Position numbers and translations under genes: made by a program
Notes under the pieces: model-generated
The model's database searches: none
Seen by the model: the letters and a program-made list of their open reading frames with translations, nothing else
What the model was told of the DNA's origin: nothing
Shown: positions 54,636 through 61,173 of the stretch, piece by piece
How the letters are laid out: each line of letters starts with the position of its first letter
How positions within the stretch are numbered: position 1 is the first letter of the stretch
From: Pseudomonadota bacterium
GTDB lineage: Bacteria; Pseudomonadota; Alphaproteobacteria; Rhizobiales; CBDHHC01
Direction: 5' to 3'
Length of the DNA: 64,000 nt
NCBI GenBank assembly: GCA_039033475.1
Contig: JBCCCO010000005.1
Coordinates: 2,106 to 66,105 of the forward strand

Positions 54636-54781
54636 AAAATATAGTTATAAGTTCTACTTCTGCTGGCTGCAAACAATGCTTTTCTGTGCTTTCCGGTACT
54701 CATGTACCTCAAGTACATTCCGTTCCGGTTCTCGAAAAACATCATTTTCGCTGCGCATAAGCGAATTTATAACTATATTTT
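54636..54781. repeat. 146-bp imperfect palindrome with 15-bp perfect termini between tRNA-Arg and polA
   Basis: AAAATATAGTTATAA at 54636-54650 is the reverse complement of 54767-54781. The arms keep patchy complementarity (TTC, CCGG, ATGTAC) around the centre GTACCTCAAGTAC. Confidence 0.6.
54644..54672 (-). promoter_or_regulatory. Candidate sigma70-type promoter of tRNA-Arg
   Basis: On the minus strand the sequence reads TTGCAG, a 17-nt spacer, then TATAAC. The -10 element ends 10 nt upstream of the mature tRNA 5' end. Confidence 0.4.
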
Positions 54782-54860
54782 GCGTGACAAAGGTATCGAA
54801 TTTTGTCGTATACTGCAATCCTTGATTTCCTTTAAGGCAAAAACGGGCTATACCACAACA

Positions 54861-57764
54861 ATGTCAAAACCAAGCTCCCTGCCGATTACAGCAGACTCTC
54901 ATATTTATCTCATCGATGGCTCAGGCTATATTTTTAGGGCTTATCATGCTTTGCCGCCTTTAAGTCGGCCTTCAGATCAGATGCCGGTTGGTGCGGTGCA
55001 TGGGTTTTGCCAGATGTTATGGAAGTTGATGCAAGACACCAAAGAGGGGGATCAGCCTAGTCATCTGGCTGTGATTTTTGATGCGGCTCGTGAGAATTTC
55101 CGTAATGAGATTTATTCTGATTATAAAGCAAACCGACCACCGCCGCCTGAAGATTTAATTCCACAATTTTCTCTTATTCGTGATGCCACCAAAGCTTTTG
55201 GTATCCCCTGCATTGAGCAGGAGGGGTATGAAGCGGATGATTTGATTGCCACTTATGTGCAAGAGGCGGTTTCTCAAAGCGCTGAAGTTACGATTGTGTC
55301 TTCTGATAAAGACCTGATGCAGTTGATTGTGCCAGGGATTACCATGCTGGATACGATGAAAAATAACAGGCGCATTGCAAAAGAGCAGGTGATTGAGAAG
55401 TTTGGTGTTGGTCCAGAACATGTGGTTGATGTACAGGCTTTGGCTGGAGATTCGGTTGATAACATTCCTGGTGTTCCTGGGATTGGAGTGAAAACGGCGG
55501 CCCAATTAATTTCTGAGTTTGGTGATCTGGATACTTTACTGGATCAAGCGGATACCATTAAGCAAAAAAAGCGCCGGGAGAATTTGATCGAATTTTCTGA
55601 TAAAGCCCGGATGAGTAAGGAGCTCGTGAAACTTAAAAACGATGTGCCAGTGGAATGTGGCTTGGCTGAGTTTGCAGTGGTGCCGCCAGAGCCTGAGACT
55701 TTGTTAAATTTTTTGCGTGATATGGAGTTTAACAAATTAACAGCCCGCATTGCAGAGAATTTAGGGGTTGATGTGCCCAAAGCCAAAATAGTGCAGGCGC
55801 GCGCATCTGGTTTTCAGATGGCAGGGGGTGCGGCAGAGCTTTGCCCTGCGCTATTGGCTGCTGAACAGATGTCTCGCATTGCCTCGGTGGGGGTGGATCG
55901 CTCGCAATATGAAACTGTGTCTGATATTGAGGCGTTGCAAAATTGGGTTCATCAGGCGTACGCCCAAGGATACTTTGCGTTTGACACTGAGACAACGTCT
56001 CTTGATGCAATGCAAAGTGAGTTGGTTGGGGTGTCTTTAGCTTTGAGCCCCAATAAAGCGTGTTATGTGCCATTGTTACATCACGCAGATGGTGATTTGC
56101 TTGATTTGGATGCAGCTGCGCAAATTTCGCAAATTCCATTTGATCAGGCTATTGAGGTGCTAAAACCAATCTTGGAAGACGAGGCCGTTTTGAAAATTGG
56201 TCAGAATCTTAAATATGACTATTTGGTTCTAAAAAAGTATGATATTACGTTGAATGCAATTGATGATACGATGCTGCTGTCTTATGCGCTGGATGCTGGA
56301 CTTGGTGGTCATGGTATGGATGAGCTTGCGTTGCGTCATTTTGGCCATACTTGCATTGCGTTTAAGGAAGTTGCTGGAACGGGCAAATCTCAGGTAACAT
56401 TTGATAAAGTGCCTATTGATAAAGCTAGCAAATATGCTGCCGAAGATGCGGATGTTACTTTGCGGCTTTGGCAGATTTTAAAGCCAAGATTGTCTGGAGA
56501 CGGGCGAACAACGGTTTATGAAACATTGGATAGGCCTTTGTTGCCAATTTTAGCAGACATGGAAGCTATAGGTATTAAAGTTGACCCTAAAGTTCTTTCG
56601 AAGCTCTCGGAAAGATTTGCCAAACGCTTGCAGAGTTTGGAAACCGATATTCATAGACTGGCAGGAGAGGATTTTAATGTGGCGTCACCCAAACAGTTGG
56701 GTGAGATTTTGTTTGGTAAACTTGGGTTGCCGGGAGGTAAAAAAACAAAAACAGGGGCGTATGGTACGAGCGCGAGTGTGCTTGAAGATTTGAGTTTTCA
56801 TGAGGATCTTTCTGAGGAAATGAGAGATCTTATTTTAAAGATACTTGAGTGGAGGCAGCTGGCCAAATTAAAGAGCACTTATACGGATTCTTTGCAAAAC
56901 TTTGTTCATCCTCAGACTGGGCGTATTCACACCTCTTATGCTATGGCAGCGACAACAACAGGACGACTTGCTTCGACGGATCCGAATTTGCAGAATATAC
57001 CGATCCGAACCAAAGAGGGGCGGGAAATTCGTACTGCTTTTATCGCCGAACATGGCTGCCAATTGATTTCTGCGGATTACAGCCAAATTGAATTGCGGGT
57101 TTTGGCGCATATTGCTGATATTGCCGCGTTAAAGCAGGCATTTTCGGATGGCCTTGATATTCATGCGATGACAGCCTCTGAGATGTTTGGTGTGCCAATT
57201 GATGATATGGATCCAATGGTTCGGCGCCGGGCAAAAGCCATTAATTTTGGTATTATCTATGGTATTTCGGCTTTCGGTCTTGCCAATCAACTGGGTATTG
57301 CCCGCTCAGAGGCTGGGGATTATATCAAGATGTATTTTGAGCGCTTTCCTGGCATTAAAGATTATATGGAGGAAACCAAAAAGCTGGCGCATGAGCAGGG
57401 GTATGTGCAGACAATTTTTGGACGCACCATTCATTATCCGCAAATTAATACCAAAAATTCTCAGCAGCGTTCGTTTTTTGAGCGTGCTGCCATTAATGCA
57501 CCTATTCAGGGGGCTGCTGCTGATATTATTCGCCGGGCGATGATTCGTATGCCGCAAGCTTTAGAAGGGGCTGGCTTTAAGGCAACAAAAATGCTGTTGC
57601 AAGTGCACGATGAGTTGATTTTTGAAGCTGCGGACCATGAGGTTCACAGTGCCATACACGTTATTACTGAGACTATGGAGAATGCTTGTTTTCCTGCGGT
57701 TGCTTTTTCTGTTCCGCTTAAAGTTGATGCACAATCAGCTGGCAATTGGGATGAGGCGCATTAG
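54861..57764 (+). CDS. polA: DNA polymerase I
   Basis: The ORF is 967 aa from MSKPSS. It has a 5'-nuclease domain, a 3'-5' exo motif FDTETTSL and the polymerase motifs DYSQIELR and QVHDEL. The upstream 53 codons in the ORF track run through the palindrome. Confidence 0.96.
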   Translation: MSKPSSLPITADSHIYLIDGSGYIFRAYHALPPLSRPSDQMPVGAVHGFCQMLWKLMQDTKEGDQPSHLAVIFDAARENFRNEIYSDYKANRPPPPEDLIPQFSLIRDATKAFGIPCIEQEGYEADDLIATYVQEAVSQSAEVTIVSSDKDLMQLIVPGITMLDTMKNNRRIAKEQVIEKFGVGPEHVVDVQALAGDSVDNIPGVPGIGVKTAAQLISEFGDLDTLLDQADTIKQKKRRENLIEFSDKARMSKELVKLKNDVPVECGLAEFAVVPPEPETLLNFLRDMEFNKLTARIAENLGVDVPKAKIVQARASGFQMAGGAAELCPALLAAEQMSRIASVGVDRSQYETVSDIEALQNWVHQAYAQGYFAFDTETTSLDAMQSELVGVSLALSPNKACYVPLLHHADGDLLDLDAAAQISQIPFDQAIEVLKPILEDEAVLKIGQNLKYDYLVLKKYDITLNAIDDTMLLSYALDAGLGGHGMDELALRHFGHTCIAFKEVAGTGKSQVTFDKVPIDKASKYAAEDADVTLRLWQILKPRLSGDGRTTVYETLDRPLLPILADMEAIGIKVDPKVLSKLSERFAKRLQSLETDIHRLAGEDFNVASPKQLGEILFGKLGLPGGKKTKTGAYGTSASVLEDLSFHEDLSEEMRDLILKILEWRQLAKLKSTYTDSLQNFVHPQTGRIHTSYAMAATTTGRLASTDPNLQNIPIRTKEGREIRTAFIAEHGCQLISADYSQIELRVLAHIADIAALKQAFSDGLDIHAMTASEMFGVPIDDMDPMVRRRAKAINFGIIYGISAFGLANQLGIARSEAGDYIKMYFERFPGIKDYMEETKKLAHEQGYVQTIFGRTIHYPQINTKNSQQRSFFERAAINAPIQGAAADIIRRAMIRMPQALEGAGFKATKMLLQVHDELIFEAADHEVHSAIHVITETMENACFPAVAFSVPLKVDAQSAGNWDEAH

Positions 57765-57936: not shown

Positions 57937-58626
57937 TTATAAGTACTTATTGTAAGTTGATCTTTTAGGTATGTTTTCTTCTAGTCTTTTTGTTTCTTCA
58001 GGGAGAATAAGCAAACGATGTATTAACCCTTCAGCAGTGTCTAATATTATTGATAGTTCTTCATCAGAGGGACGCCAACCTCTATGAGCGGCTGCATTTC
58101 CGGCTTCAATAATAGGTTCTAGTATTTGAAGTTCATCAACTGATATTTTTCCATTATGTTTAAGTGCTTCCAACCCCTTTTTAAAACACCCTTTATCACC
58201 TACCATGATAAAAATTAAACGGTCGATTGCAGTTCTTGAACCAAATGTTGCTAGGTAGTTTGATTTCAAACTCAAAGCATTGTAAGTCTCGGTTAATATA
58301 TCAATTAATGTTCTATCTTCTAATTTTTTTAACCATAATGGAGTTTTGCGATAGGAGACTGGAGGATAAATTACTTCATCCCAATTTTGAACTTCAATGG
58401 TTTTTCCTGTTTTAGGACAATAATCAAGGTATACATCTTCTGACAAAAAGGTTTTCTTCGCTAGTGCATGATTTTCACATCCACAGCATTCAATAATTAA
58501 TAATCTTGTAATTAAGTAAATAGGATATTTTTTATCCTCTTCTGTCTTTGTATGCTCTCCACGTATGAAATGTTTTGTTACAGTTTTGCACTTATTACAA
58601 AAAAATTTCTCTTTTATTTCTTCCAC
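57937..58626 (-). CDS. Zn-ribbon plus DUF4145-like domain protein
   Basis: The ORF is 229 aa with an N-terminal CxxC...CxxC (CNKC / CCGC) and a C-terminal helical domain containing GNAAAH, as in DUF4145. The gene is visibly AT-rich and uses a GTG start. Confidence 0.55.
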   Translation of the reverse strand: MEEIKEKFFCNKCKTVTKHFIRGEHTKTEEDKKYPIYLITRLLIIECCGCENHALAKKTFLSEDVYLDYCPKTGKTIEVQNWDEVIYPPVSYRKTPLWLKKLEDRTLIDILTETYNALSLKSNYLATFGSRTAIDRLIFIMVGDKGCFKKGLEALKHNGKISVDELQILEPIIEAGNAAAHRGWRPSDEELSIILDTAEGLIHRLLILPEETKRLEENIPKRSTYNKYL

Positions 58627-58662: not shown

Positions 58663-58977
58663 TTACTCAATATACCGAAAGCCTGTGCCATATGCGATCA
58701 CTTCAACGCCGCCATCAACAAGGCTGGGGTGGGAGAGGCGGACGGCGACAACGCCATCATATCCTAAGTCTTTTGCACGGCTATCTAATTTTCCTAAAGC
58801 GCGGCTAATGGCTTTTTCTGAAAGTTCTTCATATTTGTGCATTTGGCCGCCAAATGTGTTGGTGATTTTTTCGCGGACATCTTTGATAATATTGGCAGCT
58901 TCGACCGCGCAAACGGAGATGAGTTCGCCTTCTTCTATTTCGCGGTTCGAAAAACGTTCTGTGGTGTGTAGGGTCAT
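58663..58977 (-). CDS. ybjQ: YbjQ/UPF0145 family protein
   Basis: The ORF is 104 aa from MTLHTTERF, with the G..I..V.G....A..I....R and DG..A.R motifs. Its ATG overlaps the upstream stop (ATGA at 58974-58977). Confidence 0.8.
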   Translation of the reverse strand: MTLHTTERFSNREIEEGELISVCAVEAANIIKDVREKITNTFGGQMHKYEELSEKAISRALGKLDSRAKDLGYDGVVAVRLSHPSLVDGGVEVIAYGTGFRYIE

Positions 58978-60836
58978 GTTTTGTCTTTGGCTGATATGTC
59001 TTGGGGGACGTATTGTACAACAACGGGTTTGCGGCGACCAAATATTAGCCTGTATAGGCTTAAGCTCAAAAGGAGAAAGATAAAGCCCGAGATCATGACC
59101 GCGAAGGGTTGTTTGCTCCAAAGTAAAAATGGGTGAATTTCCCCTTGGAGTACCAGCCCGGCGTCATCTGGAAAATTTAAAAACTCTAGAGATGATGGTT
59201 CGCGCAAAATATAGGATATTGCTTTTTGTTGATTTGAGCTGGCTAAAATGCCGTTGCGGACTTCTGTTCTGTCAAGCAAGATTATTTTTTGTGGGTTGTT
59301 TTTTATTCCTGAAACCAGTTTGCGCGATATGTTTGGCTCTAGCGATGAGAGATAAAAAGCAAGAGATGATAACTGCTCTGGTGATAGCTGGTTAGAAAAG
59401 GTTTTGAAATCACTTTTAGATAAACCTAGCAGAGCATTACGTTTTTTGACTGAAAATCCAGAAATGGAAGTGATGGTTTTTGTGTCTTGTAAAGATAGCA
59501 ATTTTTGCAAGGCGCTTTGCGTAAAGGTGTCTGGCAGTGTGGTCTTATGGAGTTGCAATTGAACAACTTTGTCGATTTTGGTGTTTGCCAGTTCGTACCA
59601 GGAAAAGGCATCTTGCAGTGAGTTGTTATCAACGGCTAAATCGACTGCGGGTTCTGGTAATGTTACGATAGCACGCTTTAGAAGGCCTCTTTCTAGAGCT
59701 TGGTTGATACCGCTTTCACCAGATTTTTCAAATAACAAAGAGATGACTTTATTGGTTTTTCGGAGTCGCTCGATTTTGATTTTGTCATCTGTGCTGTCAA
59801 TGTCTTGTAAAAACTGGCGAAATTCTGGGTTGTTTTTTGTGAGGTCTACGGTTCTTTGATTTTGTTTTTTGAATTCAAGCCATAAATCTATAATCCCTCG
59901 TGAAATATCTGGGGGAACTGTTTTGAGAATTTTGTTTACTTCGACTTTTAATTCGCTGATCAGTTCTGTTTGGATGCGTGTTTTGGCTTCATCTGATTTC
60001 ATTTCCTTGGCGATGATTGGCAGTACGCCAAGGCGTAAATCCCACAGTTCTTTTGCAACCAAAATCCAGCCAATTATGCTAACAGCGGCTCCTACTGCTC
60101 TGGTGACAAGAGCACCGACAAGCCTGCGTCCCAATGCTTGAGAGAGACGGGTTAGTATTGTTTGGCGTAGGATGAGGAGAAGACCGCCTGTTAGACCAAC
60201 GGAAGATTCTTTGATGATGTCTGTGACAGATGTTTGTGATTGGGAGGCATCAGGATTAAACGTCATTTGGTTGCGCGTTTGGGTGGAGACCAGAGACGCT
60301 ATGGTTTGGCCGTATTGCGGGCCGATAAATTTTTGCACGCATTGTGATATGGGGTCAGCGGCTTTTAAGCTGAGAATATCGAGTTTTTTGCTAAGGGCAT
60401 TGCCAACATCTGTTGCGATGAGTTCGATGGTTTGTTCGAATTTTTCAGAGCCATAGACAGAGGTGGCAAGCTCTTGGGCCAGTTGTTCTCTTGCTTTTTG
60501 TGATGTTAGGGTTTGCACCAATTCGAGGATGGATTTATCCGCGCGCAGACGGTTCACTTCTAAGTCGACCAAATTATCAATTTTGGTGTTGATGCGGTTT
60601 TGCGTCCATGATGTATCAACGATAAATTTGTAATTTAAGTGCTGAACTGTGTCTTGCAGGACGTCTTGTAAAATGATTTCAAGTTGTTTGCGAAAGGCTT
60701 GTTCAGAGGAGACATTGCAACTTATTTCAGTTGCGGCCAATTGCGCGTGGGCTGGTTTATAGGTTTGCAAAAATGGTAGTATGCTTAAGCAAAATGAAAC
60801 CAGAAGCGCGATTAGTGGTTTGGTTGGTTTGGCCAT
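58974..60836 (-). CDS. Large membrane-anchored helical protein of unknown function
   Basis: The ORF is 620 aa. It has a signal peptide (..PAHA-Q), a central hydrophobic hairpin (GLTGGLLLIL...AVGAAVSIIGWILVA) and a C-terminal TM followed by a basic tail. I recognise no family. Confidence 0.6.
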   Translation of the reverse strand: MAKPTKPLIALLVSFCLSILPFLQTYKPAHAQLAATEISCNVSSEQAFRKQLEIILQDVLQDTVQHLNYKFIVDTSWTQNRINTKIDNLVDLEVNRLRADKSILELVQTLTSQKAREQLAQELATSVYGSEKFEQTIELIATDVGNALSKKLDILSLKAADPISQCVQKFIGPQYGQTIASLVSTQTRNQMTFNPDASQSQTSVTDIIKESSVGLTGGLLLILRQTILTRLSQALGRRLVGALVTRAVGAAVSIIGWILVAKELWDLRLGVLPIIAKEMKSDEAKTRIQTELISELKVEVNKILKTVPPDISRGIIDLWLEFKKQNQRTVDLTKNNPEFRQFLQDIDSTDDKIKIERLRKTNKVISLLFEKSGESGINQALERGLLKRAIVTLPEPAVDLAVDNNSLQDAFSWYELANTKIDKVVQLQLHKTTLPDTFTQSALQKLLSLQDTKTITSISGFSVKKRNALLGLSKSDFKTFSNQLSPEQLSSLAFYLSSLEPNISRKLVSGIKNNPQKIILLDRTEVRNGILASSNQQKAISYILREPSSLEFLNFPDDAGLVLQGEIHPFLLWSKQPFAVMISGFIFLLLSLSLYRLIFGRRKPVVVQYVPQDISAKDKT

Positions 60837-60943
60837 CACATTCTCTCATGACGAAGGTGTATTATGATATAATTCACATATTACGCTTTGTGTCTATATG
60901 TTAAGTGGGTGGTGTGGGGCTAACTTTTTTAGCTTAACTTATT

Positions 60944-61113
60944 AACCCCAGTAGGATCAAGAAAGTTGTATTTTAAACACCAAAACGCGCCACCGTCATC
61001 CCGGCCAAGCGCATATAAAGCGCGCTAGCCGGGATCTCTGGAACTTTCAACATACTGATATTTAAGAGATTCCCGCTTTCGCGGGAATGACGGTGGATAG
61101 TTTTATGCTTTCG
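60944..61113. repeat. Hairpin-repeat locus R13: inverted C, B extended hairpin, spacer, A hairpin, truncated C
   Basis: GTCATCCCGGCCAAGCGCATATAAAGCGCGCTAGCCGGGATCTCTGG lies at 60995-61041. AGAGATTCCCGCTTTCGCGGGAATGAC lies at 61065-61091. Confidence 0.9.
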
Positions 61114-61173
61114 TTTTGATTTTGTTTTTTGCGATCTTATGAAATTTACGCTTTTGCTGGAGGCTATTTACAT

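Follow-up and report, generated by a model that had tools for sequence, protein, structure and literature searches.

The window, a 64,000-nucleotide (nt) stretch of the Pseudomonadota bacterium contig JBCCCO010000005.1, carries on its reverse strand a gene for a large helical protein of 620 amino acids (aa), followed at once by a small gene of the YbjQ/UPF0145 family. On the evidence of comparative sequence analysis, these two genes are a conserved two-gene envelope module. An earlier note on this DNA had proposed a three-gene array that also took in the neighbouring DUF4145 gene; the module defined here is not a three-gene one, and the linkage between its two members is ancestral, not universal.

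The large gene ends AAA ACA TGA and ybjQ begins ATG ACC in another frame, with the letters ATGA common to both. Because of this overlap, no intergenic terminator can part them. The 620-aa reading frame and its TGA/ATG overlap with a YbjQ/UPF0145 gene at 58974-58977, both described in the earlier note, are confirmed in the sequence and by a Pfam match. That note had also read the overlap as a sign of stoichiometric co-expression. The coupled junction points to co-expression; stoichiometry does not follow from coupling. As called, the open reading frame (ORF) of the large gene spans 58974..60839 on the minus strand with a GTG start; an ATG one codon further in gives the 620-aa protein (58974..60836), which is identical to the NCBI protein AAF228_01625 from a metagenome-assembled genome (MAG) labelled 'Pseudomonadota bacterium'.

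The pairing recurs far beyond the window. In close relatives (L001-L004, L009 and L010; 43-59% identity) ybjQ is co-oriented and lies 22-39 nt 3' of the large gene. We checked 80 species genomes for adjacency, 77 of them with sufficient downstream sequence, and counted ybjQ by tblastn with the window's YbjQ; ORF clusters, into which shadow ORFs of GC-rich genomes had been merged, were left unused. A co-oriented ybjQ stands directly 3' of the large gene in 27 of the 77 evaluable Hyphomicrobiales genomes, and at 15 of these 27 loci the pair is joined by a stop/start overlap (ATGA, GTGA or TGATG). Caldilineae-type metagenome loci, whose large proteins share 22-25% identity with that of the window, carry ybjQ in ~30 of 40 cases, usually in the order paralog-ybjQ-paralog. 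Two Caldilineaceae genomes have the order leuA, large gene, ybjQ, gltB, one of them with two extra genes between. At the single locus retrieved from the Rhodobacterales-type subfamily, ybjQ lies 5 nt downstream of the large gene. The earlier note had made its case depend on co-occurrence of the large protein with YbjQ in other genomes, and the two are indeed linked in Hyphomicrobiales, in the Rhodobacterales-type subfamily and in Caldilineaceae.

Could this adjacency be functionless? The gene order might simply be inherited, or the small gene might be a hitch-hiker, with the overlap a by-product of genome compaction. Phylogenetic inertia does account for part of the pattern, since leuA and gltB flank the pair throughout Caldilineae, and a large clade has lost ybjQ at this position yet retains the large gene. 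Across the three lineages, however, the flanks are unrelated (ABC-3 and polA in the window, GST and Rrf2 in L001, leuA and gltB at Caldilineae-type loci, a nuclease and a glycosyltransferase in L133), and flanking genes also vary among alphaproteobacterial loci. The pair is the sole element that these lineages have in common, ybjQ being the only neighbour to cross them. Moreover, order, orientation and tight junction persist despite the 22-25% identity to which the large proteins have diverged, and in Caldilineae ybjQ sits between two paralogs. For a gene present about once per genome, chance alone would produce immediate adjacency at a rate well below 1%. We regard a functionless adjacency as very unlikely; on these comparisons, the large gene and ybjQ are a conserved, operon-like gene pair.

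A neighbour-joining tree of the large proteins gives this pair a history. Every basal lineage of the tree has ybjQ. Most genomes that lack it belong to a single derived clade of Hyphomicrobium; the others reflect a few small losses in other parts of the tree. Because the basal branches all carry ybjQ and the ybjQ-less genomes fall mainly in a derived clade, the tree indicates that the pair is ancestral and that adjacency was lost later. In the Hyphomicrobium clade ybjQ seems to have been cleanly excised, judging by the position of a conserved ORF of 58 aa that has two hydrophobic stretches (MGLKAPGII...CIMRGL; L005:7954-8130, L006:8014-8190 and 46 other Hyphomicrobiaceae loci): at loci with ybjQ it closely follows ybjQ, and at loci without ybjQ it follows the large gene just as closely. 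Neither the window nor the Caldilineae-type loci have this ORF.

Other neighbours were considered as conserved partners and rejected. The 58-aa membrane ORF, an alpha/beta hydrolase gene, a DUF2147 gene and MacB genes each show clade-specific synteny only. At the Caldilineaceae locus with extra genes between the large gene and ybjQ (L131:10112-11907), one of these encodes 267 aa with no family and the other 278 aa with a weak HmpF match. A contig labelled 'Bacteroidota bacterium' (L014, JBLNBZ010000114.1) holds a Hyphomicrobiales-type copy of the large gene (35% identity) together with ybjQ, perhaps through mis-binning or horizontal transfer.

By sequence and predicted structure, the large protein is an exported, membrane-anchored helical protein of an undescribed family. 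The earlier note had recognised no family in it, and that judgement held: its best matches fall below threshold in Pfam (E=0.02, under the cutoff) and NCBIfam (E=0.046), and PADLOC offers a weak Cas6 match (E=0.012). A Pfam scan of 55 diverse family members turned up no family that recurs in more than two. A profile of 18 homologs searched against PDB sequences returned noise only (top match ribosomal protein S20, E=0.11), and tblastn of the large protein against plasmids gave no match. We built two AlphaFold models, the second on a 77-sequence alignment. Both are all-helical, with confident blocks at residues ~45-191 and 272-599, and the second has a mean predicted local distance difference test score (pLDDT) of 87.3 and a predicted template modelling score (pTM) of 0.72. 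Against the PDB, Foldseek found nothing better than E=0.5 with the first model or E=1.5 with the second. The top matches, which are not significant, are designed helical repeats, TAL effectors and Borrelia helical lipoproteins, with template modelling scores (TM-scores) of 0.06-0.2. Structure prediction, which the earlier note had put forward as a check, thus gave a confident all-helical model with no Foldseek neighbour in the PDB, and none of these searches led to a characterised family.

The family is large. A word-indexed search retrieved just 18 clusters of homologs; an exhaustive profile search, run besides, found 605 homologous clusters at 50% identity (E<=1e-3), 317 of them at E<=1e-30. 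With so many homologs, the large gene is real and more than a chance reading frame. In a scan of one genome per species we counted 257 carriers, nearly all of them Hyphomicrobiaceae, Hyphomicrobium, Filomicrobium or Methyloligellaceae MAGs. Two distant subfamilies could be placed by the names on their matches, one in Caldilineaceae (Chloroflexota) and the other in Neomegalonema/Rhodobacteraceae. Two predicted members have a mixed composition that may reflect assembly or gene-calling chimeras: P0062 (740 aa) fuses the N-terminal half of the family to an HSP90/HtpG region, and P0160 (538 aa) joins an MMPL fragment to the C-terminal part.

Family members share a constant layout: a signal peptide, an acidic helical domain with a cysteine pair, a central membrane element, an acidic helical-repeat domain, a C-terminal transmembrane (TM) helix and a basic tail. 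Conservation was read from four alignments (A1, A2, A6 and A3, the last of 105 sequences), and charge statistics from 105 sequences. Hydropathy marks three segments in the window protein, at residues 5-26 (then AHA/Q, the slash marking the predicted cleavage site), 239-262 and 577-599 (then GRRK). An N-terminal layout of the form n-h-AxA/Q recurs in diverse family members; this motif and hydropathy both uphold the signal peptide suspected in the earlier note, with cleavage a prediction. The acidic N-terminal helical domain (~150 aa across the family) has two cysteines, C40 and C166. Neither varies in A1, A2 or A6, and at least 90% of the 105 A3 sequences have them; the mean for the domain is 2.04 cysteines per sequence. 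Conservation is highest in the central element, which is made up of a short Gly-rich hydrophobic stretch (212-223), an Arg/Lys-rich amphipathic loop (224-246), a second hydrophobic stretch (247-262 here, ~20 residues in the family) and a WDL..G.LP.I motif; R246, G256, G270 and P273 are invariant.

The C-terminal domain is expandable. Its core module of ~190 aa (profile positions ~321-513) is repeated 1-10 times in the family, and the giant paralogs P0046 (1044 aa), P0039 (1411 aa) and P0019 (2212 aa) have 3, 5 and 10 tandem modules, respectively. Within these giants the modules are near-identical and lie between the hairpin and the C-terminal TM helix. At Caldilineae-type loci a second paralog, sometimes a long form (for example L114/L120 1841-4729), shares an array with ybjQ. 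Among the top Foldseek matches, TAL effectors and designed helical repeats resemble the C-terminal domain in being stacks of short helices that can be expanded in tandem; unlike the window protein, they are soluble and have no membrane anchor, there is no sequence relation, and the similarity is not significant (E 1.5-10, with the low TM-scores given above).

The distribution of charge points to a topology. Over the 105 sequences, the loop between the central hydrophobic segments has a net charge of +5.6 (6.0 K/R and 0.5 D/E in ~22 residues), the outer flanks of these segments carry -1.6 and -1.9, and the C-terminal tail carries +2.8. The two large domains are acidic (net -8.9 for the N-terminal and -11.4 for the C-terminal one). 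This pattern obeys the positive-inside rule. Because the charges, the signal peptide and the cysteine pair all fit, we infer that the N-terminal domain is outside, that a membrane hairpin turns through the cytoplasm at its basic loop, that the C-terminal domain is again outside, and that the final TM helix returns the tail to the inside. Residues 267-269, just past the second segment, covary with residues 576-578, just before the last TM helix (z ~3), which suggests that both lie at the same membrane face. The strongest covarying pairs of the central element fall on one antiparallel register (219-249, 221-253, 219-253, 221-252, 219-252 and 213-262), though scores averaged by register do not exceed those of parallel controls. 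Much of the architecture sketched in the earlier note stands, namely its two helical regions, C-terminal TM helix and basic tail; its hairpin is backed by the family charge statistics, and AlphaFold draws a helix of low confidence there instead.

The second member of the pair belongs to a family known mainly from its structures. YbjQ/UPF0145 proteins are widespread in bacteria, E. coli K-12 included, and structures (1VR4, 1Y2I and 2GTC) were solved long ago; the family's 'heavy-metal-binding' label is a structural guess. Our search of the literature on YbjQ/UPF0145 found no functional study. The small protein of the window matches Pfam YbjQ_1 (PF01906) with E=5.3e-18 and 66 bits against a cutoff of 23, and the match spans residues 1-99, equivalent to profile positions 1-100 of 103. 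Like the proteins of known structure, it is a full-domain member of ~100 aa. It is a divergent one: its best score against the NCBIfam YbjQ equivalogs is 36 bits versus cutoffs of 160-181, which places it in the YbjQ superfamily but outside the curated equivalogs, and it shares 30% identity with E. coli YbjQ. It is a single acidic domain without a signal peptide (isoelectric point (pI) 5.4, net charge -4).

YbjQs linked to the large gene form a recognisable subtype. They are 42-58% identical across phyla, far better conserved than the large proteins beside them, and they share the C-terminus ...GYDG..V..SHP..V.GG.E...YG.GF, a motif that is common only to module-linked copies and that E. coli YbjQ lacks. 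The PDB relatives 2gtc, 1vr4 and 1y2i have 5 chains each, and 2GTC, 1VR4 and 1Y2I are described as pentamers (PMC4092069). The window YbjQ, by homology, is probably a homopentamer as well.

We propose, tentatively, that the large protein and the acidic, probably pentameric YbjQ form a physical complex at the inner membrane, a possibility that in our judgement falls somewhat short of probable. The large protein would be exported via Sec and its signal peptide removed. Its acidic N-terminal helical domain, with a disulfide-type cysteine pair, would lie outside the cytoplasm, as would its acidic C-terminal helical-repeat domain, and a glycine-rich hairpin of two hydrophobic helices, together with the C-terminal TM helix, would hold it in the inner membrane. 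Only the ~22-residue basic amphipathic loop within the hairpin and the basic C-terminal tail would then face the cytoplasm. YbjQ would be translated by coupling from a shared mRNA and stay cytoplasmic, and its pentamer would dock on loop and tail. Docked YbjQ might organise or gate an oligomer of the large protein, or signal to the extracytoplasmic helical domains the state of a ligand or metal in the cytoplasm. The charges of the parts are complementary (loop pI 11.8 and tail pI 10.2 versus 5.4 for YbjQ).

E. coli K-12 offers a parallel case. There, ybjQ and amiD overlap by 4 nt (L134, NC_000913.3 904593-905743), so that ybjQ again shares a stop/start overlap with the gene of an exported envelope protein. 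The order differs, ybjQ being first in E. coli and second in the window, and so does the partner: AmiD is an exported N-acetylmuramoyl-L-alanine (peptidoglycan) amidase, unrelated to the helical protein of the window. We know of no functional link between YbjQ and AmiD.

Several observations weigh against the proposed partnership. About 65% of evaluable Hyphomicrobiales genomes (for example Filomicrobium CP051234, L067) hold the large gene without an adjacent ybjQ, so in some two thirds of these genomes the partnership would have to be dispensable or work in trans. The leuA...gltB synteny is also kept within Caldilineae, so that the ~30 loci found there count as one lineage and not as independent cases. 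The hairpin is rendered by AlphaFold as a single long low-confidence helix (residues 205-250), and register-averaged covariation scores are no higher for antiparallel registers than for parallel control registers. The bulk of the large protein is predicted to lie across the membrane from YbjQ. Finally, Pfam scans of 55 diverse and 18 long family members revealed no fusion to YbjQ.

The large protein might instead be an autonomous extracytoplasmic scaffold or spacer of helical repeats on the outer face of the cytoplasmic membrane, its length set by module number. YbjQ would then be a co-regulated cytoplasmic factor that forms no stable complex with it. It might, for instance, act on the basic, hydrophobic nascent chain as a chaperone or assembly factor, or be a stress protein called for in the same circumstances. 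Copying of the C-domain module from 1 to 10 times is reminiscent of structural or ruler-like proteins, many genomes do without an adjacent ybjQ, and the coupling of E. coli ybjQ to the unrelated exported AmiD suggests a general tie between YbjQ and the envelope and not a specific partner. Carriers also include Caldilineaceae, Neomegalonema and Hyphomicrobium, lineages with filamentous or prosthecate members. Yet conservation is highest in the membrane element and its basic loop, not in the repeat domain, and the linked YbjQs are a distinct subtype, highly conserved across phyla, which a specific partner fits better. On balance, we think a free-standing scaffold somewhat unlikely.

A more elaborate version of the complex can be imagined, in which five large proteins assemble through their glycine-rich hairpins around a cap formed by the YbjQ pentamer, making a channel or transducer whose extracytoplasmic reach would be set by module number. 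We consider this arrangement unlikely. The pentameric proteins CorA and MscL, with their two-helix membrane hairpins and soluble cytoplasmic parts, are analogues in that a glycine-rich pair of membrane helices is combined with a pentameric cytoplasmic component. The likeness is one of analogy only: the window protein has no sequence or fold similarity to them (Pfam negative, Foldseek not significant), its cytoplasmic part would be a separate polypeptide, and most of the membrane protein would be extracytoplasmic.

A coupled and conserved candidate partner is a concrete handle on the function of YbjQ/UPF0145. The partner itself founds a new family of at least 605 clusters (50% identity), which neither Pfam nor NCBIfam includes and for which no relative of solved structure could be detected, even with a confident model. 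Its architecture is unusual in joining an exported helical domain and a hairpin to helical modules that can be multiplied and to a tail anchor. A complex of the two proteins, should it exist, would add a new component to the envelope of Hyphomicrobiales, Rhodobacterales relatives and Caldilineae; should that complex act as a channel or transducer, it would give the YbjQ/UPF0145 family its first biochemical role. If there is no complex, a newly defined protein family and a corrected three-gene hypothesis remain.

That correction concerns the DUF4145 gene (57937-58626, minus strand; 229 aa, Pfam E=6e-8), whose product has an N-terminal CxxC...CxxC motif. The gene is co-oriented with the pair, begins 36 nt past ybjQ and is separated from it by no terminator-like site in our scan. 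These features speak for a system of three genes, perhaps one for defence or stress; DUF4145 may be read through from the pair's transcript. Beyond the window, however, the array dissolves. DUF4145 is found at 0 of 130 related large-gene loci, so the co-occurrence with the large protein that the earlier note had proposed to analyse does not exist there. The relative L009 has an SNF transporter gene and a 163-aa ORF between ybjQ and polA instead. The DUF4145 gene has a GC content of 0.32 and a third-position GC content (GC3) of 0.21, versus a GC3 of 0.41-0.46 in its neighbours. As to defence, PADLOC has no match for the DUF4145 protein and no significant one for any of the three (best E=0.012, the Cas6 match of the large protein), and we rejected a defence-system reading on these grounds together with the absence from related loci and the foreign composition. 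A three-gene system is exceedingly improbable in our estimation. From composition and distribution, the best account of the DUF4145 gene is that foreign DNA was recently inserted between ybjQ and polA.

The coordinates of the module and of the repeat described below are collected in Table 1.

Table 1. Features of the two-gene module and its upstream region (window coordinates; residue numbers refer to the 620-aa protein)
Feature	Position	Strand	Basis or remark
Large-protein gene, 620 aa	58974..60836	-	ORF list and sequence; alternative GTG start at 60839
Signal peptide, residues 1-31: basic N-terminus, hydrophobic core 8-26, AHA/Q	60744..60836	-	hydropathy; cleavage predicted
N-terminal helical domain, residues 32-205, acidic, predicted periplasmic	60222..60743	-	second AlphaFold model, pLDDT 86-97 (45-191)
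Central membrane element, residues 206-270	60027..60221	-	used as search motif; AlphaFold confidence 40-69
C-terminal helical-repeat domain, residues 271-576, acidic	59109..60026	-	second AlphaFold model, pLDDT 90-98
C-terminal TM helix (577-599), basic tail (GRRK...), stop codon	58974..59108	-	hydropathy
ATGA stop/start overlap, large gene and ybjQ	58974..58977	-	sequence; translational coupling
ybjQ-family gene, 104 aa	58663..58977	-	Pfam YbjQ_1, ATG at 58977
Intergenic region upstream of large gene: candidate promoter and repeat copy (61068-61091)	60837..61173	-	
Repeat copies, positions	7086, 9223, 13897, 30282, 31146, 35973, 38890, 42279, 44123, 46170, 61068-61091, 63437		

The gene set is bounded as the earlier note had described, by a repeat locus on one side and polA on the other. 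The polA gene, on the plus strand, ends at 57764. Its mechanically called ORF (54702-57764, +) begins ~50 codons 5' of the likely true start (MSKPSSLP...), and the extension is probably untranslated. Two ABC-3 permease genes and one copy of a dispersed palindromic repeat are found 5' of the large gene. A promoter scan of this upstream region showed no excess of sites (9 versus 8.3 expected from shuffling), with one weak site at 60896-60869. The repeat, GTCATTCCCGCGAAAGCGGGAATC, resembles repetitive extragenic palindromic (REP) or miniature inverted-repeat transposable elements (MITEs) and occurs in 12 copies in the window versus 0 expected. Its variants preserve the stem by paired changes (CCCGCG/CGCGGG versus CCAGCG/CGCTGG). 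The copy 5' of the large gene adjoins, and lies partly inside, one arm of a 27-nt imperfect inverted repeat (60982-61008 / 61078-61104).

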